From Pachysolen tannophilus NRRL Y-2460 (taxonomy: Eukaryota): a stretch of DNA of 64,000 nucleotides. The translations under genes were made by a program, and so were the position numbers. The stretch is taken from assembly GCA_001661245.1 (NCBI GenBank), contig KV454014.1, positions 1,197,989-1,261,988 of the forward strand. Direction: 5' to 3'. Shown one piece after another: positions 11,601 to 57,071 of the stretch (positions are counted from its first letter, which is position 1; every line of letters begins with the position of its first letter). The notes below the pieces were generated by a model, which saw nothing but the letters and a program-made list of their open reading frames with translations, ran no database searches and was not told the DNA's origin.

Positions 11601-13597
11601 ATTCATCAAGTTATTCAGCTAATGATAGAGAGAGACTAGAACAGTTTTTCAAGACTTTTTTGTCGTTATTCTTTTCTTTAAGCTCCGATTATATTGAAGA
11701 AAGTTTGACTTCCAGAGATTTCGGAGGTAATGTTAGTCCTCAACCTAGTGAAGAGTCTAGTGATACTCTTGACGTGAGAGATTCTTTTGTCCCATCTGTT
11801 GCATCATCTCCAGAACCTTCTTTGCATAAGTCTTTGAAAAAGCGTTTACATGGTGATACTGATTTGCTTAAAGATGTCTTGAGACGAAACAATTTCAAAC
11901 AGGCAAAAAACAAAAAAGAAAATACACCAGAGTCATCATCTTCTTATTCAACACCTCAACCGGAATCTCAGTCAGAACTGATTGGTGCGGATGCTGATCT
12001 TCCAGAAGAATTAACTAAAGCTGCAGAATCATGGATTGAAACTTTGGCTACATATGGTGATGAACAACCATCGGCTAAAGAATACGAATCTTCGCCAAGA
12101 CATAATTTCAATATGTTCTGCAATACCAATATCTACATCTTTTTCAGATACTTGAGAACGATGTATGAAAGATTAGAGGAATTGAAGCTGATGCGTGCGG
12201 AAGTTGATAATGAAATTAAATCTAGAACTGATACCAAATTTGCCAAGGACTTGGACTTGTTTTCTCATCAAATAGAAGATATGGGCATCAATATAACTGG
12301 GAATAACAGTTACCTTGAAGCTTTGAAATTGTCTGCCAAATTAATTGAAGGTGACCTTGAGCATCAATGGTTTGAGGAATCTTTGAGACAAGGTTACAGG
12401 AATAAGGCTTATAAACTTTTCACTGTTGACAAGGTCATCCAAGGTATCATCAAACACCTGCACATAATACTTACCGATCACAAAACTTCTGAAATAATGT
12501 TATTGTTTGAGAAGGACAGAAATATGCCAGTGACTACTGCAAAGCAGCAAATTTTGTATCGTATGCAAACAAGATCATTTATGGGTGCTGAAGATCATAT
12601 GTTTAGGATTATGTTCAATGACGTACAAAATACAGTTGTTATCCAATATGTTGGGTTAGATGATCTTACCTTAAAAGAATTTAAGAATGATGATGCCAAG
12701 TATAATTATTATGTAACTTCTTATGTTATGTCCCATCCAACGGAAAGTGTTCAAGCAAATAAATTAACTTTACCATTCTTGAAGGATAATTTACAAGAGG
12801 AAGAAGATGACGATGATGAAGACGACGAATTGAAAGGTTTTATCGATTCTCAATTGAAGGTTAAGATTGATAAAAATACTTACAAATTGTTTTTTGAAAA
12901 CGGTTCATATGATGAATTTTCAAGGGATTCTGTCTACAGCAATACTTTGAAGAAATCAGCAAAAACAATAGAAAGTAGAGTAGAAAAATTATCAAGTGCA
13001 TTGGCTGGAACTAACGGTTGGTCTAAGGATTTAAGTGAGACTGAAGTAACAAATGCGGAGGAAAAATTCAAAACATTAATTAACAATGGACCTGAGGCTT
13101 ATAAAAAGTGGACAGATCCAGTTGTTAATGAAGAGGAAAAAGAATTGGGAAATGGAAAGCAAGAAGCAGAACTGATATCAGAAGATACTAATGATTCACA
13201 AGAAAAGACTGGACTGTCGGGAAAAGGACAGGATAAAGAAGTTTCGTCATCAGAGCATCAGGATGAGGAGTCTAAGCAAGATATTACAAAGGAGGTTTCA
13301 AGACAAGATTCATTTGAGAAGGAAAAAGATGAAAAAGTTGATGGAAACTCGAATCTTAGCGAAGAAAAGAGTAAGGGAGAAGAACTTAGTGATAAGCCAA
13401 CTGCAAAGGCAACTGAAAATTTTCCTTCATCAGCAGAAGTTGCTCAACAAGAGACTAACGCAACTACTGCCAGCAGTACAAGTGGTGGTGCAGAGAACTC
13501 TTCATCACAAACAATATTAAATACACCGGCATCCACTACAGTTGGTGGATATGAAATTAAGAAAGATAATGACGGAGATGTTGATATGACCAATTGA
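8626..13597 (+). CDS. SIN3: Sin3 corepressor scaffold; exons 8626-8717, 8790-8842, 8927-9030, 9131-9405, 9664-13597 (1485 aa)
   Basis: PAH1 ([14 protein letters not shown]), PAH2 ([14 protein letters not shown]), PAH3 and HID ([27 protein letters not shown]); four GT-AG introns join without stops. Confidence 0.93.
8718..8789 (+). other. SIN3 intron 1 (72 nt)
   Basis: GTATGT donor, TACTAAC at 8757-8763, AAG acceptor; phase 2 on both sides. Confidence 0.8.
8843..8926 (+). other. SIN3 intron 2 (84 nt)
   Basis: GTAAGT donor, AACTAAC at 8891-8897, AAG acceptor; phase 1 on both sides. Confidence 0.8.
9031..9130 (+). other. SIN3 intron 3 (100 nt)
   Basis: GTAAGT donor, TACTAAC at 9097-9103, CAG acceptor; phase 0. 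Confidence 0.88.
9406..9663 (+). other. SIN3 intron 4 (258 nt), within PAH1
   Basis: GTAAGT donor, TACTAAC at 9629-9635, TAG acceptor; restores the conserved KDFKSQT-IDTPGVI. Confidence 0.95.
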
Positions 13598-14029
13598 AAA
13601 GAAAATATTTTGTTTTACTTTGCCTTCTGTACATTTTTCTCATTCATTGATAATTTTTGAATATATTTTGATTTCTTTTCTGCTAGTTTAAACTTTCTAA
13701 TATTTTTCATTTTCATTTTGTCTTTTTTTTTTTTTTTTTGTTTTTTCTTTTTTATTTTACGTAGTTTCTTTTCACTTATTTAAAAAAAAAAATGTCTTAT
13801 TATTACTCTATTATTATTATATTATTACTATATTAGAAAGCACAGAAATTTAATTTACATGATTCCAATGCTTTTTTTTCAAGTCAATACTTATTTGTTT
13901 AAAAATCCAAAAAAAAAAAATTCTACGCTTTGTAAATCATATAGATTAATGAGAAGTAATTGTATATATACATATGTATTAGGTGACCGATATTATTTTT
14001 AGTAAAATTTGTAGTTTTATCATTGGGAA

Positions 14030-15424
14030 TCAATTTCCAGTACTGTTTCCAACGCCATCTTCTTGTTCCAGATATTTTTTGTTCACTGATGTATCATCAT
14101 AATCATCTTCCGCGTCCACGTCCACACCAAAATCTCCTAATCCTTCTCCAAATTCATTGTACCATTCTGTTCTTTTTAAAGAAAGTCTTGGATCTACAAA
14201 CTTAATTTTTTTCTTAAGACTATTTTTATCTGTAATTGATCTTGTAAACAGGATATTTTCATCTGTACCAGTAGCACAAACATTTTGATTACCACCATCT
14301 GGAGGCCACGGGAGACCCAACTGATCATCTTCTGCAAAATTTCCTTCTATTTCAAAAATCAATCCATTATTTGTAGGTGTATGAGGTGCTTTAGACCATG
14401 GATATAACCACAAGTACCAAGGTCCTAATGAGTTTGTTAAATTTTGGTAAAAAGAAATGTCATATGGGAATATAATATCATCAATTGTAAAATTTTGAGG
14501 AGGTTCAATATTATCTATATCTGTTGTTTTCAAATTTCTCATTTCTATTCCTGTTTCTGTTTCATCTTTTTCCTCATCATCATCATTAATATCAACATCA
14601 ACATCATTACCTAAAATATGATTTTCCGCTAGATTTTCTGTTAAATAATGACCACTTGTCTTGAGTGAATTTGTTCCAGTATTTGTCCATGTAGTCAATT
14701 TAGATAAATCTAAAAATTTCCCATATTGCTGATAATAATTTTTCGATATTTGTCTCCATAATCTTTTTGTAAAAAATTGTGATTCTAATCTTTCCCTTTC
14801 CCATATTTCAATTTGGGTCATACCTGAAAATCCTATACCATATAATACCCTTATTAATAAGATTGTAATAGTGGCAAACATCATAAAATCTAATAATACC
14901 AATATAATAACAAATATTAATTCAGTAATATTGAATAAATAAGCTGGTAAATTACTATTTTTAACAATTAAAATTAATTTCTTTCCCAATTCATATAAAA
15001 CAAAACTTGATGTAATTTCAACCCAAAATAAAAACCTCAAGAAATGAGGTGTATTTTCATATCCAACACAATTCATTGTCCAAGGACAATGATGATCCAT
15101 CTTTAAAACACAACACCTACAACTTTTACAATGATGACATCTTTCTGGTTTATAATTTGAACATTTCTTACACCATCTTTTCCACAGAAGCCGATTAGGA
15201 AATTGATCATTATTAAAATCCTTGGGAGGTGATCCTGGATGAGTTACTATTGCCAAGTAATATGAAAGCCATACCATCAACACCAGTAATTCAAAAATAA
15301 TCTGTTTTCCAATACTAAAATCATATCTAAACACAAAAAAATGTGAACAATACCCGATAAACGATATCAAAAATGAAGGAATCAGTATACCAAGCCATGG
15401 CCATCTCAAATGAACAATAGCCAT
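14030..15424 (-). CDS. PFA4: DHHC palmitoyltransferase Pfa4
   Basis: CKKC..KPERCHHC..MDHHCPW; N-terminus LRWPWLGI(A)IPSFLISFIGY; LGLPWPPDG. Confidence 0.93.
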   Translation of the reverse strand: MAIVHLRWPWLGILIPSFLISFIGYCSHFFVFRYDFSIGKQIIFELLVLMVWLSYYLAIVTHPGSPPKDFNNDQFPNRLLWKRWCKKCSNYKPERCHHCKSCRCCVLKMDHHCPWTMNCVGYENTPHFLRFLFWVEITSSFVLYELGKKLILIVKNSNLPAYLFNITELIFVIILVLLDFMMFATITILLIRVLYGIGFSGMTQIEIWERERLESQFFTKRLWRQISKNYYQQYGKFLDLSKLTTWTNTGTNSLKTSGHYLTENLAENHILGNDVDVDINDDDEEKDETETGIEMRNLKTTDIDNIEPPQNFTIDDIIFPYDISFYQNLTNSLGPWYLWLYPWSKAPHTPTNNGLIFEIEGNFAEDDQLGLPWPPDGGNQNVCATGTDENILFTRSITDKNSLKKKIKFVDPRLSLKRTEWYNEFGEGLGDFGVDVDAEDDYDDTSVNKKYLEQEDGVGNSTGN

Positions 15425-15662
15425 ACTACCTTTCCGTCTCTATTTTTCAATCTATCTATTCAATAAGATTTCAAATCAAACCACACAATAGATAACAATC
15501 TTTAGGGGGAAAAAAATGAAAAAAATTTTTTAAAGATTGTATTCCGAAATTTAATAAAAGTTGTCGATTTCCAAGCTTAATTACGCATAAATAATACTTC
15601 TGCATCTTTTTTTTACTTGATTAAGTGTGGTTCCTGGTAATTATAAAGCCGGTATCAAGAAA

Positions 15663-15758
15663 GATAAAAAAGATACGCCAAAAATAATCTATAGAGAAAG
15701 TGCAGTGATGCTAGATAGCGTGGCTAGATATCATAGTTAGATTTTGTGGTTAGATAAG
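15663..15758. promoter_or_regulatory. Cluster of GATA sites (GATAA/GATAG/GATAAG), nitrogen catabolite repression type
   Basis: At least five GATA cores within ~100 bp, upstream of an allantoate-permease-family gene. Confidence 0.5.
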
Positions 15759-15897
15759 TAACTGGAAGATTATAGATTGTGGTTAATTTCTTATATATAT
15801 ATATGTAGAGAATGATCTTTAGTTGTAAAAATATTATGACTTTTTATTTTTTTTTTTTTTTTTGTAAGAGAATGAATGAATTATAAGTATATTGATA

Positions 15898-17517
15898 ATG
15901 TCAGAGTTTCAGTATAATGGTGTTGATGAGAAATTGGCTAATGTCAATGTGGGTCAAAAGGAAGATAGTGAAGGTGATGGTTTAGATGAAGAAGCTGTCT
16001 TAGCTCAAGTTATTTCTTCAATTAGGAGTCATACAGATCATGCAGAATATGATATGAAAAATGATGTTGATGAAGCAATGTATTTAGCTCTTAAATCTAA
16101 AGGTGTTACTTTAGATGAAATTACTGATAAGAAATTATTAAGAAAAATTGATTTCCATATTTTACCATTATGTTGTATATTATATAGTATTCAGTATATG
16201 GATAAGACAACTACATCTTATGCATCTATTATGGGTATTACTGAAGATTTAGATATGGTTGGTAATATGTATTCATGGACTGGTACTGCATTTTATTTTG
16301 GATATTTAATATTTGTATTTCAAGCTTCTTATTTATTACAAAAATTCCCATTATCAAAGGCAACTGCAATTTTCATATTTTTATGGGGTGCAATATTATG
16401 TCTTAATGCTGCATGTACAACTTATAAATCATTTGTAACATTAAGAGTATTATTAGGGATGTTTGAAAGTTCAATTACACCTTCAATGATGATTCTTACT
16501 AGTCAATGGTATAAAAAAGAAGAACAATTTTTAAGAACTGCAATTTGGTTTTCATTTAATGGATTAGGAACTATAATGGGTAGTGGGATTGCTTATGGAT
16601 TAGCAATTCATCTGGATAGTTATTCAGTTACAGCATGGAAACTTTTATTTATTATAACAGGAGTTATGTCAATTTTTGTTTCAATTTTATGGATTTTCAT
16701 AATTCCTGATTCTCCTTCAAATGCATGGTTTCTTAATGAAGAAGAAAAATTAATGATTGTTGAAAGAATTAGAGAAAATAAACAAGGTTTTGGTAATAAA
16801 CATTTTAAAAAATATCAATTTATTGAAGCAATAAGTTCACCTTTAACTTATTTATATGCTTTTTATTCATTTTGTACAGATGTTCCAAATGGTGGATTAG
16901 GTAGTTTTGGATCAATTTTATTAACAGATGATTTTGGTTTTACAACAAAGAAAGCATTAATTATGTCAATGCCAGGAGGTGCAGTTGAAGTTGTTGGATG
17001 TATTGCTATTGCATTTTTTATGCAAAAAAAATTAAAAATTCATAGAATGTTATTAGCAACTATTAATACTGCACTTGTATTAATTTATTCTTGTATGTTA
17101 GCATTTGCAAGTCATTCAAAAAAAACAAGATTAGCTGGTTATTATTTATTTAGTACAGCACCAATAGGTATGATTTGTGCACTTTCATGTTTTTCTTCAA
17201 ATACAGCAGGTCATACAAAAAAAATTATTGTAAATGCAATTTTTTTAGTTGGTTATTGTGTTGGTAATATAGTTGGTCCACAAACTTTTAAATCAAGTGA
17301 AGCACCTCATTATCAAGGTGCAAAAATTGCAATTGTAATTTGTTATTGTTTTGCTGTAGCATTAATGCTGGGTGCATATATTGTTTGTTCTTTAGAAAAT
17401 AAAAAAAGAGATAAATTACAAGCTGAAAATCCAGATATTGGAATAAGTCATATCCAAAACTCAGAATTTGCTGACTTGACAGATAAGGAAAATGTCAATT
17501 TTAGATATGAATTATAA
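15898..17517 (+). CDS. DAL5: MFS allantoate/ureidosuccinate permease family (Dal5-like)
   Basis: KLLRKID, QYMDK, QWYKKEEQFLR, SNTAGHTKK, GNIVGPQTF, EFADLTDKEN motifs; first ATG at 15898. Confidence 0.8.
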   Translation: MSEFQYNGVDEKLANVNVGQKEDSEGDGLDEEAVLAQVISSIRSHTDHAEYDMKNDVDEAMYLALKSKGVTLDEITDKKLLRKIDFHILPLCCILYSIQYMDKTTTSYASIMGITEDLDMVGNMYSWTGTAFYFGYLIFVFQASYLLQKFPLSKATAIFIFLWGAILCLNAACTTYKSFVTLRVLLGMFESSITPSMMILTSQWYKKEEQFLRTAIWFSFNGLGTIMGSGIAYGLAIHLDSYSVTAWKLLFIITGVMSIFVSILWIFIIPDSPSNAWFLNEEEKLMIVERIRENKQGFGNKHFKKYQFIEAISSPLTYLYAFYSFCTDVPNGGLGSFGSILLTDDFGFTTKKALIMSMPGGAVEVVGCIAIAFFMQKKLKIHRMLLATINTALVLIYSCMLAFASHSKKTRLAGYYLFSTAPIGMICALSCFSSNTAGHTKKIIVNAIFLVGYCVGNIVGPQTFKSSEAPHYQGAKIAIVICYCFAVALMLGAYIVCSLENKKRDKLQAENPDIGISHIQNSEFADLTDKENVNFRYEL

Positions 17518-18007
17518 AAAATCTTATATATGTTATCTTAAACTTCCATCATCATATTTCCCTAATATATACATACAAAAAAGGGGGTATAAAAGGGGGT
17601 GATTCCCATATACTGAAAACTGAAAAAAAAAATAAACGCAAAAGTCTTAAAAATTTTAAATAAAAAAAACCACACAAACATTTACTTTCTCTCTTTCTTT
17701 CTGTAGCGACCTAGAAACTTCAAAACCTTTCTCCCATACTCAGAATCATAGCTGATTCAAATACATTCTTGTCGCTTTTCCCTCTTCAAATTTGTTCCAT
17801 TTGAAAAATTTCTCATATAAAAATTACAGTTAAGAAGAAAAAAGTCGTGTCGTTTTGACTCAAAATAAATTTTTTCATTTTTGTGAAAAAATTCAACCAA
17901 AAAAGAAAGAAAGGAAAAAAAAAAGAGTCAAAGAAGAAAATATAAAACTTGTTAATAAAGTATTATATATTGAAACTTTTTCTTTTTTAAGATATAAAGT
18001 ATTCAAG

Positions 18008-18723
18008 ATGCCAAAGAACGGTAAAGGTAAAGTAAGTATTGAGAAAATAAATGGGAATGAGAAAGGGAAAAAGAATGAGGTTATTGAAAGATAAATTTGC
18101 CGCTAAGAGATGAAAAAAAAAAAAAGATTTCAAATGATTTTTCATTAAATTTTTTGATCGAGCAATTAATATTGATATAGTGGTGAAAGAGTTTGAGTTT
18201 TTTTTTCTTTCATTTTTTCATTTTTTCATTTTTCCGTAAATTTTGTTGAATAGAAACTAACATTGAAAAAAATTAATTTGAATAGGGTGGTAAAAATAGA
18301 AGAAGAGGTAAGAATGATAATGAAGGTCAAAAGAGAGAATTAATACTTAGAGAAGATGGTCAAGAATATGCTCAAATTACAAAGATGTTGGGTAATGGTA
18401 GAGTTGAAGCTACTTGTTTTGATGGTGTAAAAAGAATGGCACACATTAGAGGTAAATTAAGAAAAAAAGTTTGGATGTCTCAAGGTGATATTATATTAGT
18501 TTCTTTAAGAGATTTTCAAGATGATCAATGTGATGTTGTTCATAAATATAACTTGGATGAAGCAAGAACTTTGAAAACCATGGGAGAATTACCAGAAAGT
18601 GCAAAGATCAACGAAACTGATACTTTTGGTGGTGATGACGATGATGATGTTAACTTTGAATTTGGTGCCGCCAGTGATGAAGATGAAGATGAAGATGAAG
18701 AATTGGATATCGATGATATTTAG
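18008..18723 (+). CDS. TIF11: Translation initiation factor eIF1A; exons 18008-18031 and 18286-18723 (153 aa)
   Basis: [45 protein letters not shown], acidic tail ending DIDDI. Confidence 0.96.
18032..18285 (+). other. Spliceosomal intron in TIF11 (254 nt)
   Basis: GTAAGT donor, AACTAAC at 18255-18261, TAG acceptor; phase 0. Confidence 0.92.
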
Positions 18724-19360
18724 ATTGTAAGGTAAGGTAAATCTACCCTTTTTTTTTTTTTTTTCTTTCTTTTCATTATTATTATTGTTATTATTTCTTT
18801 CTTTTTGCTTTTAACCTGTTAATATATAAAGTTTATATTTATTTGAAAGTTGAAAGGTTTGTGGCTTCAATTTTTTTTTTTTTTTTTGTATTTTTTTTTT
18901 TGTGAATAATATAATTCATTTTTCCAAGTTTATTAGGTAGGAATAGAGAGAATAGAAATTTGATCTTTTAATAAAAACTTTACCTAAGAATATTAATACT
19001 ACTAGTAGTAGTAGTAGTAGTAGTAGTATATATATGATATGGAAGTATAAAAATCAAACAACAAATAGTATATGATAAGTGGTTAAAATAATACCAAGGA
19101 AGAATCTAATTTTTTTACCAACTAATTTTTTGTCTCTTGATCCTTCTTGGCATTATCATCACAATAATAATAATAATAATAAAACACATGAATATATATA
19201 TATATATATATAAATGTAAAACAAACTAAACTAGAAAAAAAAAAAACGGATTGTCCATCCGATAAACAATTTTAATTTTGATGTCGATTTTTTTTTTTTT
19301 TGTTCTTTTAATTTTCATATCTAAAAAATAAACGAAAGCTTGCTTAATAATTTAATCTCT

Positions 19361-20425
19361 TTAATCATCAATTTCAAAACTGTCGTATCTTCTTAATTCT
19401 AACTCGGAATGATTAGTATCCCTTCTCATTTGCATTGATCGCCTACCTTGATAACTGCTAATACCATTATCACTAATTGGTAAATCTCCTAATCCATTTT
19501 TACTTGAACCAAATAAATGTTCTCCTTCTGGATTTTTTCTTGAAATATTTAACAAATAAACTCCACTAAAAATGATCAAAAATCCACAAATTAATGAAAT
19601 AATATTAACAGATGATGTAGTATTAAAGCCTTTAAATAAAATAAATGAAGCTACTAAAGTGAAAGTAGTAAAAGTCACATAATATAATGGATTAACAATT
19701 GAAGTATCAAATTGATCTAAAGCCTTATTAAAATAAGTCATTTGAGTCATAATACAAACAACAACAACAATAATAAAAATATAAGTTGATACATGTGTAA
19801 ATTGATTATTCCCACCTAAAGTCAATTTCAATGCAATACCAAAACCTTTTATTGACATAACACTAACTGAACCAACTGTAGAACATATACTAATATAAAT
19901 CATTGGATTTTTAGTTCCATATTTTGGAACAACTTTATAAATCATAACAGCACAATAAATCAGAATACATGTACAATAAAGTAAAAAACCAGGTTGAGTA
20001 GCATAACCTAAAATTTCATCCACAGTAGTAACTTCTTTATCAGGAGGAGCATGCAAAACAATAATAACTGAACCTAAAAGACATATTGCACAACCCATCT
20101 TACCTAAAGTACCTAATTCCTCTTTCAAGAAAACTGCTGCCAATACTGCACCAATAATTACAGAAAGAGCACCTAATGGTGTTACTAAAATTGCAGGAGC
20201 AAATGTATAAGCAGCAAAATTAGCAACTTCACCGATTGCCATAGTAAGCATACCAGCCCACCAAATGGGATTTTGTAAATATTCATAACCTTGAACTTGA
20301 TCATTTCCTGAAATCTTTGATGCATTTATTAAACCTTTCTTGGTGATAATAAAAGATGTTCCTATTGCCAACGAAGACGACATCGCTAAGGCCAATCCAA
20401 TATATTTATCATCAACCATTCTCAT
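19361..20425 (-). CDS. NIPA-family Mg2+ transporter (DUF803)
   Basis: DKYIGLALAMSSSLAIGTSFIITKKGL and NFAAYTFAPAILVTPLGALSV; start may be the second Met at 20419. Confidence 0.9.
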   Translation of the reverse strand: MRMVDDKYIGLALAMSSSLAIGTSFIITKKGLINASKISGNDQVQGYEYLQNPIWWAGMLTMAIGEVANFAAYTFAPAILVTPLGALSVIIGAVLAAVFLKEELGTLGKMGCAICLLGSVIIVLHAPPDKEVTTVDEILGYATQPGFLLYCTCILIYCAVMIYKVVPKYGTKNPMIYISICSTVGSVSVMSIKGFGIALKLTLGGNNQFTHVSTYIFIIVVVVCIMTQMTYFNKALDQFDTSIVNPLYYVTFTTFTLVASFILFKGFNTTSSVNIISLICGFLIIFSGVYLLNISRKNPEGEHLFGSSKNGLGDLPISDNGISSYQGRRSMQMRRDTNHSELELRRYDSFEIDD

Positions 20426-21110
20426 ATGTATATATATTTATATATATATATATATATATTTTTTTAATAGTATAATAACAGGTGTGTTTACTATCCTGTT
20501 GAAATGAATGCTTATGTTTTTTTATTTTTTTTTTTTTTCCTCTTCTATAATCAATTGAATTTATAGCTATTTCGTATAAATCTCTTTTCCCAAATGATTC
20601 TTATCAATAATGAAGCTAGATCAGATAAAATTCAAGACCAAAATGTGTAATGAAACATTGAAGTTTCACCAACTTTGAAAACGCGTACGTATTAATTATT
20701 AAAATGAGAAATGATTTTGTTTTTTTTTTGTATCACTTCAAAATTTATATTATTTTTTCAATTTTTTTTTTTTTTTAATTTATTTTATCTAAAACATTAA
20801 TTATTATTACTATAAACTACTACTAAAATTTAACCAAAAAATGAAGAAAAGAAAATGGGAAAAGCTTGCAAGACATGGGGTTGATATAGTGAAATGGTAA
20901 AACGGTGAAACAAAACTGGAAACTAAAAACTGAAAACTGAAAAAGACAAAAAGACAAAAAGAAAAAGCGAAAACTTTAATAAATATGGTTAAATTCTCGC
21001 TTTCTTGGTATATAGTAATAGATATATATGCACACACGGAAATGAATATTAAGGAATGGAAATAATGAATGAAGGGGAAAGGAATTGGGAGGACAATGAG
21101 GAGAGAAGTT

Positions 21111-21159
21111 GGGAATGGGAATGAGAATGGGAGTGGGAGTGGGAGTGATAGTGGTTGGG
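21111..21159 (+). repeat. GGGART hexamer repeat downstream of CDC5
   Basis: gggaat gggaat gagaat gggagt gggagt gggagt. Confidence 0.7.
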
Positions 21160-21175
21160 AGAGAAAATAAATTAT

Positions 21176-47732: not shown

Positions 47733-47778
47733 TTTTGTTTTCTTTTCTTTCCTTGCTTCTAATTAATTATAGATCTTA

Positions 47779-48474
47779 TCGGCGGCTAATTAATTATTGA
47801 AAAATAATGAACTAAAACCAAAACCAAAAAACAACAATAAAATAGAAAATTTCAAACCTTTAAATATCAATCAATAACCCTCTGGCGCTAAAAAATTTCA
47901 AAAAAAAAAAAGTTTTCTTTCAAATAAAAATTCAAATTCAACTTTATGATAGCAATTAGATAATTAATACCTTTTTTATATTTGATCATTTTACCGTCTT
48001 TACATTTGATTTCTTGGAGCTTTCACCTTATCGCTAAAACAAAAACAATTTTTAAGCCGTATCTTAAAAACCCCCAAAAAAAAACCAAAAAGAGAAACTT
48101 ATCCGCTTTTGGGGGTTGGTTGGGGGCTAGTAAAGGACGGTTAAGGGGATGCGGCGCTTAATTGCCCCAAAAAGGGTAAGAACAGATCTATGCTTAACTA
48201 TAACTGTCTGCGGTAACAGGACTGCGCGAAAGTGGCCTTCATCTTTTTAGCAGCCGCCAGCCAGCCGCCAAGTTTATTATAGGGGTCGAAGTATAAATGT
48301 GTCCGGTTAGCAAACTGTTTGTGTTTGGTTTAGGGGGGAAGAGGAAGAAAGGAAAAAGAAAGGAAGGAACAGGAAAAGGTAAATGGAGGCGGGCGGAATT
48401 TTTATTAGCCTGCCTTTCTTTTCTTTTTTTTTGGCGGACTTTTTTTTTCTTTTGGCGTCTACTTCTGGCGGCTA
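47779..48474. promoter_or_regulatory. URS1/Ume6-type GGCGGCT sites (47781, 48252, 48263, 48467) plus GATAAG sites upstream of the aminotransferase
   Basis: TCGGCGGCTA, AGCCGCC twice, TGGCGGCTA; CTTATC at 47775, 48027, 48098. Confidence 0.65.
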
Positions 48475-48623
48475 ATCTGGATTTGGTTTTAAGCGCTTAA
48501 ATACTATGTATGGATGTTGTATAATTTTTATAGGTACTAAATATTACTATGTATATGTTATTATATATAAACTTTTCACAACATTCTATTCTAACTATTT
48601 TATTTTTATAAGACTACTTTAAT

Positions 48624-51600
48624 TTAATTTGGTTTATTCAGGTGGTAGTAGTTACCGCTATTTTCAATATCTTTGTAAATTTTCTTTAAACGTTTGTTTT
48701 CGGATCTTGTTAGGTTTTTAATCATTAAACTATTGTTCAAATTATCGTTAATCTTGATTAAATTTTTACTAAGAAACATATTGATTAAAAAAATTGGGAA
48801 ATTATTTGGGATTTTATTTAATATAATTTCAAATTTTTTAAATAATTCATCAATATTTTGTTCTTGGTGTTCGTTAAATTTAAAAATCTTGTGATTATTT
48901 AAAAAATTTTCTATTAAATTAAAATCGTTTAAACTCAAATAATGTTCAAAGACTTGTAGTAATAATTTTTCATTCAATTCGGAATCATCTTTAGTTAAAA
49001 CTCCATTTCCAGTTTCTTCTTCTTCTTCTTCTTCTACTACTACTTCTACTACTTCCTCTTCCGGTACTATTAGTTTATCTTTATTCTGTGTAAAGTTTAA
49101 TTTGTTTCTTGGATGATTATGCTCCTGGATGAAATGATCAATTTTATGATCAAAATTAACAAATTCAATTGGAATCTTAAAAGTCATAGCTAAAGTTTCT
49201 GCACTTTTAAAATCTGTTAATTGACATAGCTGATCAATACATGACTCATATGATCCTAATTTGAAAATAATCAATATTAGTAAATAGGGCAAGTTATTGT
49301 TAATTTTAAGTTTTGATTCACATGTTTTTAATACATTTTTATTTTCATTTTTATTGGTAATTATTTTTGATTCCCTCGATATAATAGATATAAAATTGCA
49401 TAAATTATTATGCAATTTAACAAATTCATTATTTTTAATTGTTTTTAAAGATTCAATCTTCCAATATTTATCAAATGTCGATTTTGGAATTTTTAAAATC
49501 CGATATTTAGATATTAATAATTCCAAACTTTCTTGTAAATTTTTATCCTGATCTAATAATTTTAACATCTTGTTCAAAATTTCAATAATTAAATCACCAA
49601 TAAATTGAATCTCACTTTTTTCAACAACTAATACTTGTAAATAACTTAATTTTAAACCTCCACTATCTTCAGATATCTTATCAAGTAAAGTTAACACTTT
49701 ATGTTCGTTAATATTACATTTCAATTGTGAAGAAGCAAACAACTTAACTGCATATTTCGGATGTTTTGTAACTAACCATTCCCCATATTTCCAAATAGAT
49801 TGTTCATCGTCAAAATTATTCACTATAAACTCAATCAAGTTTTCTAATTTTAATTCATCATTTCTTTGGAAAAAAATCTCAAAATCATCATCTTGAATTT
49901 CATTTTCTAAAAGTTTCATGAATAAATTAACTGAATTTGATGCTTGTCCCAAATGTTCATAATATTTACAAGCAACATAAAATTTCTTATTTTCAAGTAA
50001 AATGTTCACAGTCTCATCTTTCATTATTAAAACATATTCTTTAATTAAATCTGTGAAATTATTAATAGCATGTACATTAGTAAATGAATTATCAGATAAA
50101 TATTCTAAAACTAATGAAACTTCTAATGTCTTGAAAATAACATGTCCATCCTCTCCTTTGAAAATAGATCGTTTGTTCATCCATCCATTTAAAAACAATT
50201 TATAAAATTCATTAACAGCTGATTTTTTAGACTTGAGTCCTGAGTCACTGATTTCATCATTTAAAATCAGTTGAATCTTTGTTCTTACATTTCGTATTTT
50301 CTCCAGTAATGATGAAAACGTTAATAACCCACCATATATATATTTGATGTTTTTGGTGAAAATGAAAATCAAAACTCTTGGATCTAAGTTACCATCAATC
50401 CAATAATCAAATGCTCTATCAAATTGTAAATCACCAACAAGAATTAGACCAATTAGTAATGTTATAAAATCAGATTCAACCTTACCATAGTCTGTCGAGT
50501 TATCTGAAATCCTAATCTCGTCCTGTAGATCTTCAATTACTGATTCAGTGTTATTTGCATTTTTGTCAGCCAAATCAACTAATCTAACAAGCTTAGGAGT
50601 CGGAAGAAACAATTTCACTCCTTCCTTGACACCATAAAGTAAACTTGATGATGATATATTAGAAATTTTTGAGATTTTCAGGTCAAAGTCCGAAATCTTT
50701 TCCTTTAATTCGTAGTCTTTTATATCTCCATTATTCAGAAGTACAGAAAGTCTGATTAATTCAATAATTTTATCATTTGCAAAATTGAAAATATGGCTGA
50801 CACTGGACACTTTAACTTTGTCATCACACGTAATTTGCTGAGCTTGCAGTTGATCATGAATAGAATGTATAACTACCTCATTACCACTATTCAAAACTGC
50901 AATTGCGTATGGATAATCAACAATTAATGAGGACGGGTAAGAGCTCCATGGAATAGTTCCTCTACTTATATCACCATTTGTATTAACAATCATTCCCATG
51001 GATGGTTCCTCTTTTGTATTACCACACGAAAGTAAGAATTCTCTTTTACCAACAGGGAATATTAGTGGTTTTAACAGCAATTTTTTCGATGTGGAAACAT
51101 CATCATTTTCGGTTTTATTGAAAGAAGTTGATATTGGGAACAAAGGTATTTTTTGACCTCGTATCATATCAACTAAATCGTAACCAAATTGAGTTGCTGC
51201 TGCTGCGTAATTAGATCTTCTGATACCTGCTATTGAATTTGGATAATTGAGATCCTTGATTAATTTTATGGAATCTGATGCTACCCTTACCAATCTTATA
51301 CATTTTTTCGTAAGCAACGTTGCCACTATTCCATGGGTTTGATCATACTCCGCAATTTTGTTGGAGTTTCTTAAGTCTAACTTAAAAGAATCCCAATCTA
51401 AAGATATGTCATTCACGTCTTTAATCTTTCCAATATTTGCAGGTGACAATTCAGGCAACATAAAACAAGAAAGAATCGAACCGCTCAAAACCAAGGCCCT
51501 AGATATGCTAGGTAATAATACGATCTTTTTAATTTGTCTTGTCTTGGTTTCACTAAATCTTTGTCTAGATATTAACATATATCCTATTTCATCATCAATT

Positions 51601-52430
51601 TTAAAATAATGCAATAGTTCCCCAACTGAAGTTCCAATATAAATGTTTGAGTCAAATGATTCTATACTCGTCACCTGTGCATTTTGAGATTCGGGTATTT
51701 CTGAATTTTCCACTGGAATTGAATTAATCAATGAAACTAAAGAATATGGACCAGATGATATTATAGGATCATGATGTATTTCCTTCAATTTCAAGTTTTT
51801 ATTTTCATTATCCTTTGGATCCTCAACGGGATCAGTTTTCCCATCGAACTCTTTATTATCGTTTTCCGAAAAATCTTTTTGACTAGAAACACCCAGCTCA
51901 GAATTCTCAGCCGTCTCTTTACAATCTTGATTTTGAGACGTTTCATCTGTCTCTGTATTCACATCTTTCTCATCGAGGTTATTATTATTGACTTTAATTT
52001 CACCTTTTTGCTGCTTTTCTTCCTTTTCCTCTTCCATTTCCAGAACTCCTTCGAGTGCTTCCAGAGTTTCTTTGTGATTCATTTCAGGCAATAATTCTAA
52101 GTTAGAATTTGAGTTTAAATCATCAGGACTATTTTCATTTGCATTTTCCTGTATTACATCCTGCGGTACCGATTCCTTTACTTCATTATTAGACAAATCA
52201 GATGATAATGACTCTTTTGTTTCTTCAGTACAATTATCTGGCAATTTTGCCGTTTCCAGGCTTTCTTCGTTATTTGAATCAATTGATTCATTTTCCACTT
52301 GAGTATTACCTTTGCTGTTTCCACCCGCAGCATAATCTTCATTATTATCGCTATGATTATTATTCCCTGCAACATCTACTTCTCCATTTTTGCTATTTTT
52401 TCTATTCTTAGACTTTTGGCGTTTAGCCAT
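48624..52430 (-). CDS. VPS3: CORVET subunit Vps3 (CNH domain plus alpha-solenoid)
   Basis: NIYIGTSVGELLHYF, LPELSPANIGKIKDV, NGDISRGTIPW, LDPRVLI; long acidic N-terminus. Confidence 0.85.
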   Translation of the reverse strand: MAKRQKSKNRKNSKNGEVDVAGNNNHSDNNEDYAAGGNSKGNTQVENESIDSNNEESLETAKLPDNCTEETKESLSSDLSNNEVKESVPQDVIQENANENSPDDLNSNSNLELLPEMNHKETLEALEGVLEMEEEKEEKQQKGEIKVNNNNLDEKDVNTETDETSQNQDCKETAENSELGVSSQKDFSENDNKEFDGKTDPVEDPKDNENKNLKLKEIHHDPIISSGPYSLVSLINSIPVENSEIPESQNAQVTSIESFDSNIYIGTSVGELLHYFKIDDEIGYMLISRQRFSETKTRQIKKIVLLPSISRALVLSGSILSCFMLPELSPANIGKIKDVNDISLDWDSFKLDLRNSNKIAEYDQTHGIVATLLTKKCIRLVRVASDSIKLIKDLNYPNSIAGIRRSNYAAAATQFGYDLVDMIRGQKIPLFPISTSFNKTENDDVSTSKKLLLKPLIFPVGKREFLLSCGNTKEEPSMGMIVNTNGDISRGTIPWSSYPSSLIVDYPYAIAVLNSGNEVVIHSIHDQLQAQQITCDDKVKVSSVSHIFNFANDKIIELIRLSVLLNNGDIKDYELKEKISDFDLKISKISNISSSSLLYGVKEGVKLFLPTPKLVRLVDLADKNANNTESVIEDLQDEIRISDNSTDYGKVESDFITLLIGLILVGDLQFDRAFDYWIDGNLDPRVLIFIFTKNIKYIYGGLLTFSSLLEKIRNVRTKIQLILNDEISDSGLKSKKSAVNEFYKLFLNGWMNKRSIFKGEDGHVIFKTLEVSLVLEYLSDNSFTNVHAINNFTDLIKEYVLIMKDETVNILLENKKFYVACKYYEHLGQASNSVNLFMKLLENEIQDDDFEIFFQRNDELKLENLIEFIVNNFDDEQSIWKYGEWLVTKHPKYAVKLFASSQLKCNINEHKVLTLLDKISEDSGGLKLSYLQVLVVEKSEIQFIGDLIIEILNKMLKLLDQDKNLQESLELLISKYRILKIPKSTFDKYWKIESLKTIKNNEFVKLHNNLCNFISIISRESKIITNKNENKNVLKTCESKLKINNNLPYLLILIIFKLGSYESCIDQLCQLTDFKSAETLAMTFKIPIEFVNFDHKIDHFIQEHNHPRNKLNFTQNKDKLIVPEEEVVEVVVEEEEEEETGNGVLTKDDSELNEKLLLQVFEHYLSLNDFNLIENFLNNHKIFKFNEHQEQNIDELFKKFEIILNKIPNNFPIFLINMFLSKNLIKINDNLNNSLMIKNLTRSENKRLKKIYKDIENSGNYYHLNKPN

Positions 52431-52619
52431 CGTTACCTAAATAATCATATATCTCCTTCTCCTATTGAACTCAAGTATTCCTTGTTTATTATGTATCTAC
52501 ATGAACATTAAAAAGTATGCGAAATTTATTTTTTTAAATTTTTGTTAGTAAAACACATCTCTATAAAACTATCTAATTAATTACATCAATACAATTTTAA
52601 AAATTTTTTTGATGAAAGC

Positions 52620-54179
52620 TCATCCAAAGATTCTAACACCATCATTTTGAATCTCTTCCTCTTCTTCTTCTTCTTCATTTTGTTCGTTTTGTTCACTTGC
52701 ACTTTCTTCAGCATCAGACTGTTCATTCATGTTAACTTTTTGTCCCAATAAGCCAGCAAAATATTCATCTATTTGATGATCACTCCATTTATCTTTAGAG
52801 TTTCTCGGAGTTTCAAAGTTTGCAATTGGTTCCTGAATTTTATAGTTTAATTTTCTTCCCTTTGAAGCTTTTCTTTCGTAATTTTTATGTGATTTTAAAG
52901 TAGATTTATTAACAATAACCATGGATGATGATAGTTGATTATTTGAAGATGATAATTTTTTATCGACTAAATCGTTCAATAATGATCTATAAAAATCTTC
53001 ATCATCAAATATGTATTGATTTTCTTGTAAAGATTTATCAATGTTCTTGATGATTGGGTTTGAGTCATCTTCAAAATTAGTTTCATCCGTTTCATGTTTC
53101 TTATCTTCAACATAACCCAACGGTATAATATTTCTTCTATTGATTCTAGTTCTCTTTATCATTCTTTCCATATCTTGTAAATTGGTTTCGACCTGAATAT
53201 TAGCATTTTGGTTAACAATCTTGAATTTATTAGAATTCAATGCTGTGGAACCTGAAGAGCTTTGAACTTTATGAGACCATTTTACTAAAACATTTTTCCT
53301 ATATCTATTTAAAATTGAATCTAATTCATTTGTTTGATCCAAATAATCACTCAGTTTTCTTTTCCTATTATTTAATTTAACCTGTGATTTTATAACATTC
53401 TCCTTCAAAAATATTTTACTTCTTAATTCAAATATAGAATCTAACAGATCATATAATTTATCTTCAATTGTTTTTATCATTGAACTGCTTTTATTATCTT
53501 TAAATTCTTCATATATCTCTTTTTTTATAGGTAACTGATTTGAAGCGATTAATGATTTTTGCAATTTTATTCTTAAATCCAAAAATTGATCAAAATATTT
53601 TTGTTGATTCAAAACTGCGTACCCTTTTAAAGCATCATTCTGTGCTGATTCTGAAAGTCTGTTTACAATGTGTTTTCTCTCGTTTGATAATAATTCTTTT
53701 AATTTATTTCTCTTATATTTGTCATCAGTTACATCTTCCAAGTCGTCGTTTTCTTCCAAGTTTTCGTCTTCATCTTCTTCTTCAACATCTTCTTCCTCAA
53801 TCAGTTCCTCGGAATCTGACTCAAACGATATCAGACTATTCTCACTTTCTGTATTTTCCTCTTCTTCTTCTTCTTCTCCTTCATCTTCTTCACTTTCATC
53901 TTCATATAAATCCTTCCGACTCTTCAGTTCACCACTATATTTCACACCATTTACTTTCAATCCATCATCTCTCAATCTTGACTTTGGAACATGAACATAA
54001 TGCTGTTTCTCTAATTCCTCATCTTTACCTTCGTCAGCGCTATCATCACCATCTTCATCATTAAACTGATCATCTTCAAAATGTTCAAAAACATCTCTTT
54101 CTGTATCTTCAATATCAAAATCCAGAACCCGCGGCTTTGCGAGCTCGGAAATTTGGTCCGCTAATGACTTCTTGCCCAT
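52620..54179 (-). CDS. BFR2: Bfr2/AATF ribosome biogenesis factor
   Basis: DALKGYAV, LDLRIKLQK, IFDDEDFYRSLLNDLVDKK, RKASKGRKLNY; ATG at 54179. Confidence 0.95.
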   Translation of the reverse strand: MGKKSLADQISELAKPRVLDFDIEDTERDVFEHFEDDQFNDEDGDDSADEGKDEELEKQHYVHVPKSRLRDDGLKVNGVKYSGELKSRKDLYEDESEEDEGEEEEEEENTESENSLISFESDSEELIEEEDVEEEDEDENLEENDDLEDVTDDKYKRNKLKELLSNERKHIVNRLSESAQNDALKGYAVLNQQKYFDQFLDLRIKLQKSLIASNQLPIKKEIYEEFKDNKSSSMIKTIEDKLYDLLDSIFELRSKIFLKENVIKSQVKLNNRKRKLSDYLDQTNELDSILNRYRKNVLVKWSHKVQSSSGSTALNSNKFKIVNQNANIQVETNLQDMERMIKRTRINRRNIIPLGYVEDKKHETDETNFEDDSNPIIKNIDKSLQENQYIFDDEDFYRSLLNDLVDKKLSSSNNQLSSSMVIVNKSTLKSHKNYERKASKGRKLNYKIQEPIANFETPRNSKDKWSDHQIDEYFAGLLGQKVNMNEQSDAEESASEQNEQNEEEEEEEEIQNDGVRIFG

Positions 54180-54223
54180 CACCTATAGAAACTTGTTCAA
54201 TTATGAATTCAAATATGAAAAGA

Positions 54224-54267
54224 GCTCATCTATATATTATATATAAAGTTATACAAAAAAATTTTCA
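54224..54267 (-). promoter_or_regulatory. PAC (GATGAGC) and RRPE (TGAAAATTTT) elements in the BFR2 promoter
   Basis: Both consensus motifs within 90 bp of the BFR2 start. Confidence 0.75.
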
Positions 54268-54283
54268 GCGCCTTTAAAAATTA

Positions 54284-54495
54284 CAAATGCAATCAAACTG
54301 CGTCTCAAATGCGCTCAAAATGCAATTTAAAGGCGTACTGAAGTGCGTAAGCAAGATACAAATACATTGCGTGCCACAAGGTGCACATATCCTACGCAGT
54401 ATATTTGACAAAATGTGCACTTAGTAATGCGCTTAATTGTGTGTTTTATGTGCGCTTTCTCTATATTTAAATGCGTATCACTTTTTGTGTGCATT
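54284..54495 (+). repeat. Degenerate ~11-bp repeat / TGCG-TGCA array
   Basis: TGC (once GGC) at 54288, 54299, 54310, 54321, 54332, 54344, then further copies to 54490. Confidence 0.6.
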
Positions 54496-54634
54496 TTTGT
54501 TTTTATTTTTTCTTTAATAATTCATAAACAAATAATAATTATAATCAATCTATATTGATGTTATCCTTTTCATATTTCTTTTTTTTTTTTTTTTTTTTTG
54601 AAAGAGTGTTTTTGCTTGATAAAAAAATCATTCA

Positions 54635-55061
54635 ATGAAGTTAACGATTAAGAGGTGGCATGCAGTGACATCATGGTATTGGGATATTTTAAATGATGAA
54701 TTGTGTGGTATTTGTAGAGTGTCATTTGATGGTACTTGTCCAGTTTGTAAATATCCAGGTGATGAATGTCCTTTAGGTAAGTCAATAACTAATTTTTCAA
54801 ATTTTTTTATTTTTATTTGGTTTTTAATTGCTTTTTTACTGACTGTTTTAAGTTATTGGTGAATGTCAGCATGCATTTCATATGCATTGTATCTTGAAAT
54901 GGTTAGAGACAGATACATCAAAAGGATTATGTCCGATGTGTAGACAAGCCTTTAAGATGAATGGCGGTAGTGATATCTTGACAAATTCAGCACTGGAAAA
55001 TGATAATAATCAAAATAATAACCTTGGTGAAAATACTCTGGAAATCGTTATGGAAAGGTGA
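54635..55061 (+). CDS. APC11: APC/C RING-H2 subunit Apc11; exons 54635-54776 and 54853-55061 (116 aa)
   Basis: [48 protein letters not shown] after splicing. Confidence 0.96.
54777..54852 (+). other. Spliceosomal intron in APC11 (76 nt)
   Basis: GTAAGT donor, TACTGAC at 54837-54843, AAG acceptor; restores the RING domain. Confidence 0.93.
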
Positions 55062-55657
55062 ATTTTAGATCCGATCAGAAACAACAAAAATTAAATGTAA
55101 CTATTGAGTTTGCTCAATTTTACAAAAAAATAGCTTTTGACAGAGCCGGCGATTTACAGTAACTGGTATTAGGTCAAGTACTAAAATTTTCCAATGGCTA
55201 GCTATATTGACAATTAAAATGAGCTATAGATTGATAATCTCATGTCATACAACTGCTAACCGGTAATTACTTACAGCGGATAATCTAAAAACGTGATTTT
55301 TTTTGCTTTTTCTTTCTTTCTTCCGGTTTTTCAGCAAAGAGAAATTTTAAAAAGAACATACTGAAACTTGAATGATATTCATATCGAAAATTAATTCTTC
55401 CAAATAAGAATTATCTGTCTGCTTTTATGATTATTTGTTTCATTTCATTGTTAATATAAATTCGGATTTATAATAGATTCTCCGGAAGTCGTGTATTTTG
55501 GTATTGAAAAGTTTTTTCAATTTTTTTTTTTTCATTTCATTTCATTTTGTATATGATGATGGTCTTTACATAAATTTTTCACTTTTTTTTTTTGTAAAAT
55601 GTTACTTGTAGCTGATAGAATTTTTAGAGTTTCAAGTTGGAAGATTTAGAAGAGTAT

Positions 55658-56974
55658 ATGATGTTAAAGTCAGAGAGCCGTTTTTCGACAATAGTTATCA
55701 AACTAGGGTCTTCCTCGTTGGTGGACGTTAAAACGAGGGAGCCGAGACTTGCCAATATGTCATCTATAGTGGAAACAGTGGTTAAATTGAGAAGACAAGG
55801 TCATAAGATTATACTTGTATCTTCTGGAGCTATTGCATTTGGGATGCAAAGAGTAGATATAGCTAAAAAGCCAAAACATTTGTCGCAAGTTCAAGCTTTG
55901 GCAGCTATTGGGCAAGGAAGATTGATAGCACTTTGGGATGATTTATTTGGGCAATTAAATCAACCGATTGCACAGATATTATTAACAAGAAATGATATTA
56001 CTAATTATACACAATTTCAAAATGCCAAGACCACCATTGATGAATTATTAAAGATGGACATTGTTCCGATAGTTAATGAAAATGATACTTTATCCATTAG
56101 AGAAATTCAATTTGGTGACAATGATACATTAAGTGCTGTCACTGCTGGAATGTGTAATTCAGATTATTTATTTTTAATGACTGATGTAGATTGTTTATAT
56201 ACAGATAATCCAAGAACAAATCTGGATCTGAAACCTGTAATGGTTGTGAAAGATTTTAAGAATTTAAAAGTGAATGCAACAACATGTGGTTCTGCTGTTG
56301 GTACTGGTGGAATGAAAACTAAGATAATTGCTGCTGAGTTGGGTGCAAGTGCAGGTGTTACAACAGTTGTTCTTAATTCAGGACATCCAGAGAATATTTT
56401 AAAAATTGTGGAATATTCTGAAAAATTTGATGATTTTGATTTTGATATTGATGAAAGTATAACTGATGAACAATTTATATTACAAAATGAATTAGAATAT
56501 AAAAGATTATTAGAAAATGATATGCCACTTCATACTAGATTCTTGGCATCAAAACATTTTTCTGTTAAGGACAAAGAATTTTGGTTATTACATGGATTGA
56601 AATCAGCAGGTTCTATTATAATTGATCCTGGATGTTATAAAGCTATATCCAACGTAAATAAAGCAGGCTTATTACCTGTTGGAATCATAGCTGTAGAAGG
56701 TTCTTTTCATGAACTAGAATGTGTTTCAATTAAATTGGGATTCAGAAATAAGGATAATACTTTAAACACTCATAAACCTTTGATTGAAGTTGGTAGAGCA
56801 AGATGTAATTATTCAAGTACTGAAATTGACAAGATTAAAAACTCCCAAAGTCATGATATTTTCAAAATCTTGGGTTATTTCGAAAGTGAATATGTGGTCC
56901 ATCGTGAAAATTTTGCATTTCCCTTGCACTTGAACATTGATGTCGAAAAGATTATTGAAGAGAATGACAAATGA
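55658..56974 (+). CDS. PRO1: Glutamate 5-kinase with PUA domain
   Basis: VIKLGSSSL, VSSGAI, NENDTLS..FGDNDTLSA, GTGGMKTK; first ATG at 55658. Confidence 0.96.
   Translation: MMLKSESRFSTIVIKLGSSSLVDVKTREPRLANMSSIVETVVKLRRQGHKIILVSSGAIAFGMQRVDIAKKPKHLSQVQALAAIGQGRLIALWDDLFGQLNQPIAQILLTRNDITNYTQFQNAKTTIDELLKMDIVPIVNENDTLSIREIQFGDNDTLSAVTAGMCNSDYLFLMTDVDCLYTDNPRTNLDLKPVMVVKDFKNLKVNATTCGSAVGTGGMKTKIIAAELGASAGVTTVVLNSGHPENILKIVEYSEKFDDFDFDIDESITDEQFILQNELEYKRLLENDMPLHTRFLASKHFSVKDKEFWLLHGLKSAGSIIIDPGCYKAISNVNKAGLLPVGIIAVEGSFHELECVSIKLGFRNKDNTLNTHKPLIEVGRARCNYSSTEIDKIKNSQSHDIFKILGYFESEYVVHRENFAFPLHLNIDVEKIIEENDK

Positions 56975-57035: not shown

Positions 57036-57071
<36 letters not shown>

Follow-up and report, generated by a model that had tools for sequence, protein, structure and literature searches.

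In-frame CTG codons behave as alanine codons in a 64-kb window of Pachysolen tannophilus DNA

The nuclear genetic code in which CUG stands for Ala is NCBI table 26. The same codon is read as Ser (table 12) in Candida yeasts, the CUG-Ser1 group; Ascoidea and Saccharomycopsis form the CUG-Ser2 group. For P. tannophilus NRRL Y-2460, CUG was shown to specify Ala by tRNA analysis together with LC-MS/MS (Mühlhausen et al. 2016, PMC4937558). By the account in that paper, the tRNA(CAG) of this yeast carries the Ala identity elements G3:U70 and A73 and is free of a long variable arm, and CUG occurs at 16,824 positions across 80% of the genes. Ala was reported at 97.2% of the 907 fully supported CUG positions, and the same source describes non-Ala readings at CUG as being equal in rarity to those at the unambiguous AUG codon (PMC4937558). 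The CUG-Ala clade, as reported by Krassowski et al. 2018 (PMC5951914), consists of Pachysolen, Nakazawaea and Peterozyma. A stochastic decoding of CUG is described for another yeast, Ascoidea asiatica (PMC6041473).

The DNA analyzed here (the window, 64 kb over its whole length) is almost certainly nuclear DNA of P. tannophilus NRRL Y-2460, in which CUG is decoded as Ala according to table 26. When CTG is translated as A, the SIN3 ORF matches the tail of the protein PACTADRAFT_50307 (P0122) of this strain at every position, starting with residue 31 of the ORF and continuing through its last residue. Hanseniaspora and Ascoidea, both AT-rich yeasts, had been candidate sources of the DNA and were discarded once this match pointed to Pachysolen. 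The species belongs to the order Alaninales, which was named after the reassignment of CUG to Ala. The protein match and this lineage bear out the original prediction, which had placed the genome within the CUG-Ala clade. The deposited proteins carry A at all 13 visible CTG positions (PFA4 2/2, FIT 5/5, SIN3 6/6); this A is the annotators' choice of translation table and not independent biology. The closest relative found is represented by two proteins (P0002, 53% identity; P0123, 71% identity) and could itself be a member of the CUG-Ala clade.

The window agrees with the published code of P. tannophilus in strain, in its Ala-like CTG columns and in the deposited A. Nothing differs from that code; the window merely lacks a tRNA gene, since a tRNA gene search of the 64 kb found none. 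The proportion of ORFs with CTG (23/27) is similar to the 80% of genes given for the whole genome (PMC4937558). The window lies inside the CUG-Ala clade as reported by Krassowski et al. (PMC5951914), with the identical reassignment. The CUG-Ser codes of Candida and of Ascoidea/Saccharomycopsis have reassigned the same codon, also via an anticodon-CAG tRNA of non-leucine descent. They differ in the amino acid, and in the window Ser is disfavoured by Pfam scores, by alignment columns and by a control with true Ser codons (see below).

Judging from the literature, the decoder would be an anticodon-CAG tRNA whose descent and identity elements (G3:U70 and A73) both mark it as an alanine tRNA. Because the tRNA(CAG) has these elements, it would be charged by alanyl-tRNA synthetase; with CUG decoded as Ala in P. 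tannophilus, all 93 CTG codons of the window would then be Ala codons. The organism identity, the Ala-like CTG columns and the deposited A were established here, while the tRNA and peptide evidence comes from the literature. Biologically there is nothing new in this result: the deduction that CUG is Ala is correct and has been in print for P. tannophilus since 2016, and the code has its own NCBI table. In practical terms, table 26 is needed for annotating the window, because otherwise 23 of the 27 ORFs would be mistranslated at 93 positions. The case also shows that reassignment of a sense codon can be recognised from 64 kb of raw sequence without tools.

Table 1. Position of the ORFs and CTG codons of the window discussed in the text.
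Feature	Position	Strand	CTG content or context
27 long ORFs	589..63779	.	93 in-frame CTG; at least one CTG in 23/27 ORFs
SIN3 codon 850	12188..12190	+	CTG; column A 27, K 19, S 17, G 15, N 11, Q 11, L 10
SIN3 codon 940	12458..12460	+	CTG; IKH[CTG]HII
PFA4 codon 392	14249..14251	-	CTG in Leu/Ile column: L 59, I 22 of 119 homologues
PFA4 codon 14	15383..15385 (CTG 15385-15383)	-	WLGI[CTG]IPSF
GAR1 codon 177	24374..24376 (CTG 24376-24374)	-	within SRGG[CTG]RGG
TOP1 codons 301, 287	33247..33291 (CTG 33249-33247, 33291-33289)	-	NLS[CTG]AEKK, VMF[CTG]YFE
NNF1 codons 22-36	42510..42554	-	six CTG: GS[CTG]EL[CTG]EL[CTG]E[CTG]PE[CTG]SE[CTG]S
COQ2 codons 213, 310	45030..45323	-	both CTG
COQ2 codons 23-28	45876..45893	-	CTG TTG CTG TTG CTG TTG; N-terminal presequence region
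PRO1 codons 189, 191	56222..56230 (CTG 56222-56224, 56228-56230)	+	PRTN[CTG]D[CTG]KP

CTG accounts for 93 of the 14,703 codons in the long ORFs of the window (Table 1). The seven CTG codons that had been named individually in the original prediction were recomputed against these ORFs, and each of them is in frame at its coordinates.

The effect of the three possible readings on protein family scores was analyzed with Pfam. Whole-protein scores were computed with CTG read as Ala, Ser or Leu and added up across the 18 families that responded to the change of reading, which are found in 17 ORFs. The sums were 2986.4 bits for Ala, 2980.8 bits for Ser and 2967.6 bits for Leu; hence Ala exceeds Leu by 18.8 bits and Ser by 5.6 bits, while Ser exceeds Leu by 13.2 bits. 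Ala scored better than Leu in 13 families and worse in five, namely AATF-Che1 (by 2.7 bits), NIPA (1.7), UbiA (1.0), Abhydrolase_1 (0.7) and MFS_1 (0.4). The TRAUB score shifted by up to 2.9 bits even though the matched stretch contains no CTG, and single-family differences below about 3 bits are therefore noise. With TRAUB removed, the sums still differ by +15.9 bits (Ala-Leu) and +5.7 bits (Ala-Ser).

Control codons, present inside the Pfam stretches in numbers similar to CTG (27 CTG, 21 CTA+CTC, 30 TCC+TCG, 33 GCC+GCG), moved the scores in the opposite direction. Reading the true Leu codons CTA/CTC as Ala cost 16.0 bits and reading the true Ser codons TCC/TCG as Ala cost 19.5 bits; the true Ala codons GCC/GCG lost 20.3 bits when read as Ser. 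Such a comparison of Pfam scores with control codons is a cheap test for a reassignment, which requires neither a genome nor a set of tRNAs.

A second test used the columns of orthologue alignments. Profiles from three alignments were combined into a column classifier, for which 12 CTG sites were usable. The column tests left out codon 426 of MET2 as well as the CTG codons near the N termini of COQ2, NNF1, VPS3, BFR2 and SIN3, which are unalignable or belong to low-complexity or presequence regions; SIN3 105, SIN3 1178 and COQ2 23 are exceptions, which were retained by the 0.6 occupancy filter. Of 43 ordinary codons, the classifier assigned 42 to the right amino acid. For CTG it chose Ala, ahead of Ser by 2.5 nats and of Leu by 7.8 nats. 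An orthologue tally had been proposed along with the original prediction, and on these three alignments it returns the residue expected. The columns are not mostly Leu or Ser: Leu has an average frequency of 0.10 in the CTG columns vs 0.61 in true Leu columns, and Ser is the top residue in no CTG column of the alignments, with a maximum weighted frequency of 0.17.

The log-likelihood differences were calibrated with draws of 12 sites from other codons. For true Leu codons LL(A)-LL(L) ranged from -22.1 to -8.9, compared with +7.8 for CTG; for true Ser codons LL(A)-LL(S) ranged from -10.1 to -3.2, compared with +2.5 for CTG. In draws from true Ala codons the 95% ranges were 10.2 to 23.6 for LL(A)-LL(L) and 2.7 to 10.8 for LL(A)-LL(S), and the CTG values are slightly under both. 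The two controlled tests, Pfam log-odds and column profiles, support the view that CTG acts as an Ala codon in the genes of the window. On its own, the window sets Ala well apart from Leu, which it excludes, and gives Ala a modest margin over Ser (5.6 bits, 2.5 nats). Together with the controls and the organism identity, these results uphold the prediction that CTG is Ala.

At COQ2 codons 213 and 310 Ala is the top residue, with weighted frequencies of 0.62 and 0.41 (150 representatives). Among 119 homologues of PFA4, the column of codon 14 contains A 37, I 25, V 5, L 2, Q 2, F 1 and 47 gaps. The motif LGIAIP had been given for this site from S. cerevisiae, and A-I-P is indeed present in S. 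arboricola, S. uvarum and S. mikatae as well as in Vanderwaltozyma, Zygosaccharomyces, Komagataella, Babjeviella and Ascoidea; the PFA4 of Ascoidea rubescens is 47% identical to that of the window. In SIN3 the column of codon 940 contains M 77, A 14, C 13 and L 10 (119 homologues). K-H-A-H, the sequence that the original prediction gave for this position, was seen in four Saccharomycetaceae among the alignments listed (Zygosaccharomyces, Lachancea and two Eremothecium species).

Conservation is lower at the CTG sites than at ordinary Ala sites. Most of the CTG codons occupy weakly conserved positions, which would be expected for codons that have newly arisen after the reassignment. PFA4 codon 392 is the clearest site running counter to Ala. 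It is very unlikely that the minority of CTG codons in conserved Leu/Ile/Met columns are relics of ancestral CUG-Leu or tolerate residual Leu decoding; if this were true, decoding in Pachysolen would be less clean than published. PFA4 codon 392 and SIN3 codon 940 are example sites of this kind. Perhaps the CTG codons of NIPA and BFR2 can be added, as judged from family scores and not from columns: Mg_trans_NIPA and AATF-Che1 are higher with Leu.

The columns also bear on a reading in which CTG is ambiguous, i.e., usually read as Ala but to an appreciable extent as Leu or Ser, the situation reported for A. asiatica. The CTG columns have a weaker Ala character than the columns of ordinary Ala codons, a few CTG sites are within hydrophobic Leu/Ile/Met columns, and stochastic decoding does exist in that yeast (PMC6041473). 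However, the weaker signal is explained equally well by young CTG codons at variable sites, and the published peptide data report non-Ala residues at CUG as rarely as at AUG (PMC4937558). The degree of ambiguity is not a quantity that can be measured from sequence alone, and we consider this reading highly improbable.

That CTG is Ser, as in the CUG-Ser1 or CUG-Ser2 yeasts, is hardly credible, although Ser was the runner-up to Ala both in the Pfam sums and in the alignments. By family, Ala scored higher than Ser in nine cases, lower in seven and equal in two. The seven families slightly preferring Ser are Aa_trans (0.8 bits), Nnf1 (0.6), Abhydrolase_1 (0.5), TatD (0.4), MFS_1 (0.3), POLO_box (0.1) and TRAUB (0.1). 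Yet true Ser codons lose when read as Ala, where CTG gains; the LL(A)-LL(S) of CTG has the opposite sign to that of true Ser codons, and Ser does not lead in any CTG column. Furthermore, the organism is P. tannophilus, for which mass spectrometry is reported to give Ala at 97.2% of the CUG positions (PMC4937558). The standard code, with CTG as Leu and Ala-like sites by chance, can practically be dismissed: PFA4 codon 392, the five families scoring higher with Leu and the L that P0002 carries at PFA4 codon 14 are in its favour, but Leu is far below both Ala and Ser in the Pfam sums, the true Leu codons CTA/CTC behave in the opposite way, and both the Leu frequency and LL(A)-LL(L) of the CTG columns are remote from those of true Leu columns.

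The assignment of CTG to Ala was also compared with the remaining sites, which differ in how much they say. Both PRO1 codons had been taken as evidence for Ala. In three bacterial glutamate 5-kinases the residues opposite codon 191 are A/A/A, and those opposite codon 189 are P/P/S; hence among the PRO1 sites only codon 191 favours Ala. The two TOP1 codons are in frame where they had been placed, but they are uninformative as to the amino acid: the residues opposite codons 301 and 287 in human TOP1 are K and Q, respectively. This comparison covers the four PDB alignments shown; yeast TOP1 (1ois) was matched but is outside those four. The Topoisom_I_N score of TOP1 was 334.8 with Ala, 334.7 with Ser and 331.5 with Leu. 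Variable columns, likewise uninformative, were found in the PDB alignments at MET2 codon 335 (I, R, A, Q) and at the VPS3 CTG sites (Q, D, E, T, gap, I). A word-index search for FIT/SCS3 homologues retrieved only the window's own protein and thus yielded no alignment. The apparent Leu run of COQ2 is an alternation of CTG and TTG, as had been noticed, over codons 23-28. In GAR1 the octapeptide around codon 177 mirrors an earlier copy, SRGGARGG, as was also claimed; the codon in the earlier copy that matches this CTG is GCT (Ala), at codon 142.

The window is AT-rich (GC 0.26-0.32) and consists of tightly packed yeast genes with few introns. We retained 27 non-overlapping ORFs with a minimum length of 150 codons, most of which were assigned families by Pfam; the gene names used here are our interpretation of these families. 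Besides the ORFs placed in the table, Pfam matches indicate a lipase-type hydrolase, a TPS2/TSL1-type trehalose synthase, TatD, SIN3, an MFS transporter, NIPA, a polo kinase, GAR1, TOP1, CENP-O/MCM21, FIT, mitochondrial S15, a MET2-type acetyltransferase, RRP40, COQ2 (UbiA), a class-III aminotransferase, PRO1, an AVT-type transporter and PIH1. No tRNA genes were found within the 64-kb window.

Features with coordinates in the window
Feature	Position	Strand	Basis
SIN3 residues 1-83	8626-9030	+	tblastn, 61% identical over 135 aligned positions
SIN3 residues 83-175	9128-9406	+	tblastn
SIN3 residues 176 onward	from 9665	+	tblastn
PFA4 (DHHC)	14030-15424	-	Pfam
Aquarius-like protein	25193-28225	+	Pfam
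NNF1	41886-42617	-	Pfam
VPS3 (CORVET) homologue, 1268 codons	48624-52430	-	match to S. cerevisiae Vps3 (8qx8_E)
BFR2 (AATF)	52620-54179	-	Pfam

The VPS3 homologue, for which no Pfam family was found at E<=1e-5, matches the S. cerevisiae protein over residues 165-709 with E 1.2e-30. Its N-terminus carries a long acidic extension with 4 of the ORF's 11 CTG codons. The only Pfam matches of the aquarius-like ORF (1010 codons) at E<=1e-5 are the two N-terminal aquarius domains. In human aquarius the helicase is located in the C-terminal part; no helicase family was found by Pfam at this threshold in the C-terminal 400 residues of the yeast ORF, and the helicase part of this copy may be degenerate or missing.

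In-frame CTG accounts for 93 of the 14,703 codons and occurs at least once in 23 of the 27 ORFs. The original prediction, that CTG encodes alanine, had named seven of these codons, and recomputation placed all seven in frame at exactly the coordinates given. It had also described a CTG/TTG alternation in COQ2, which indeed reads CTG TTG CTG TTG CTG TTG, and a repeat in GAR1, where the octapeptide SRGG-x-RGG occurs twice with x encoded by GCT in one copy and by CTG in the other. The orthologue residues it had cited held where they were compared. Three Saccharomyces species and five further yeasts have A-I-P at the PFA4 site, and four Saccharomycetaceae have K-H-A-H at the SIN3 site. In PRO1, compared with three bacterial glutamate 5-kinases, codon 191 aligns with A in all three and codon 189 with P, P and S. 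At the TOP1 sites the human enzyme has Q and K, which decide neither way.

We compared whole-protein Pfam bit scores, taken as log-odds, of the CTG-containing ORFs translated with CTG as alanine (table 26), leucine (table 1; 19 ORFs) or serine (table 12; 17 ORFs); GAR1 and PIH1 were omitted from the serine run because their scores did not move between tables 26 and 1. Summed over the 18 families with an altered score, alanine reached 2986.4, serine 2980.8 and leucine 2967.6 bits. Alanine exceeded leucine by 18.8 bits, with 13 families up (foremost AA_kinase +5.8, Aquarius_N_1st +4.4, Nnf1 +3.5 and Topoisom_I_N +3.3) and 5 down (AATF-Che1 -2.7, NIPA -1.7, UbiA -1.0, Abhydrolase_1 -0.7 and MFS_1 -0.4). 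It exceeded serine by only 5.6 bits, with 9 families up, 7 down and 2 equal.

Control recodings were applied to the same 17 ORFs on top of table 26. Reading the true leucine codons CTA/CTC as alanine changed the sum by -16.0 bits (21 codons inside Pfam stretches), reading the true serine codons TCC/TCG as alanine by -19.5 bits (30 codons), and reading the true alanine codons GCC/GCG as serine by -20.3 bits (33 codons); of the 70 CTG codons in the tested ORFs, 27 lie inside such stretches. CTG shows the sign of an alanine codon against both leucine and serine, and relative to the controls the effect is of full size against leucine and about one third of full size against serine. Single differences must be regarded as noise, since families whose matched stretch is untouched also shift: between tables 26 and 1 the score of TRAUB (BFR2) differed by 2.9 bits with no CTG in its matched stretch, and in the CTA/CTC control that of Nnf1 shifted by 1.8 bits with no changed codon in its stretch. 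Small shifts of a Pfam score in comparisons of this type do not point to particular sites. With TRAUB left out, alanine leads leucine by 15.9 bits and serine by 5.7 bits.

Orthologue columns were analyzed for PFA4 and SIN3 (119 homologues each, the best 120 of 589 and of 1582, respectively, minus the own protein) and for COQ2 (150 cluster representatives); 12 CTG sites lay in columns with an occupancy of 0.6 or more. In raw counts among these best 120, alanine leads at PFA4 14 and SIN3 850. With sequence weighting it leads at COQ2 213 and 310, columns tallied in weighted form only, and comes second or ties for first at PFA4 14, SIN3 850 and SIN3 940. Leucine tops a single site, raw or weighted, namely PFA4 392 (L 59 and I 22 of the 119 from the best 120 of 589), and serine tops none of the 12 columns. 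The remaining columns show E/D, Y/S/C/T or a mixture. In the CTG columns the residue frequencies averaged A 0.17, E 0.12, L 0.10 and S 0.06; the reference means were A 0.42 in true alanine, L 0.61 in true leucine and S 0.33 in true serine columns.

A classifier comparing the columns of each codon with the mean column profile per amino acid was correct for 42 of 43 ordinary codons, missing only ATG. For CTG it called alanine, with serine 2.5 nats and leucine 7.8 nats behind. Both values are near-compatible with alanine alone, falling slightly below the true-alanine ranges; the profiles include the drawn sites, which slightly flatters the controls.

Log-likelihood differences in 1000 draws of 12 sites (95% ranges)
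Sites	LL(A)-LL(L)	LL(A)-LL(S)
True Ala	10.2 to 23.6	2.7 to 10.8
True Leu	-22.1 to -8.9	2.5 to 7.3
True Ser	7.6 to 14.2	-10.1 to -3.2
CTG observed	7.8	2.5

From the window alone, leucine is excluded and alanine is modestly preferred over serine. The alanine interpretation proved right: the Pfam and column tests favor it, and the identity of the organism together with the literature settles the question. Assignment of the genome to the CUG-Ala clade was likewise confirmed, as NCBI taxonomy gives the order Alaninales and SIN3 is identical to a P. tannophilus NRRL Y-2460 protein; the ORF translated with CTG as alanine equals, from residue 31 to the end, the tail of the deposited PACTADRAFT_50307. 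The deposited PFA4, FIT and SIN3 proteins have A at 13 of 13 visible CTG positions, so table 26 is already in use in the public record.

That CTG is alanine here is already known. Mühlhausen et al. (2016), working on the identical strain, report that the Pachysolen tRNA(CAG) clusters with alanine tRNAs, has G3:U70 and A73, and does not have the long variable arm typical of leucine and serine tRNAs (PMC4937558). Of 907 fully supported CUG positions, 97.2% were alanine in their LC-MS/MS data, and deviations were described as reaching no higher frequency than those at AUG codons. Krassowski et al. (2018) define an 'Ala clade' of Pachysolen, Nakazawaea and Peterozyma and credit CUG-Ala to two independent discoveries in 2016 (PMC5951914). 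We read the CTG codons as alanine codons at positions less conserved than average. This agrees with the tRNA-loss model as put forward in PMC4937558, in which a tRNA is lost, the old CUG codons dwindle and the codon is captured by another tRNA; on that model the present-day CTG codons would be young.

The deposited PFA4 protein (348 aa) begins at Met117 of a 464-codon ORF, directly after the DHHC motif (DHHCPWT/MNCVG). The 116 further open codons upstream can be aligned with orthologues, for example at A-I-P at codon 14, and the public gene model looks N-terminally truncated, without the catalytic motif. The nearest relative among the matches listed, with both proteins on a contig of 65,447 bases, is 53% identical in PFA4 (P0002) and 71% in SIN3 (P0123). 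At PFA4 codon 14, P0002 has L and other yeasts A or I; this L would fit another CUG-Ala species whose CTG was translated with the standard code.

About 175 N-terminal residues of the deposited SIN3 protein (1485 aa) are encoded upstream of the long ORF (region 8626-9739, + strand). The tblastn placement makes 9407-9664 an intron and means that translation does not begin at the ATG at 9641. The match of residues 1-83 is probably interrupted, given its identity over 135 aligned positions. A 1387-residue SIN3 homologue (P0241), 54% identical and with Sin3 Pfam domains, lies on a 1,220,266-base contig and is labeled by NCBI 'hypothetical protein JNB11_00605 [Kocuria palustris]'. SIN3 being eukaryotic, the contig looks like one from a yeast that carries a bacterial name.
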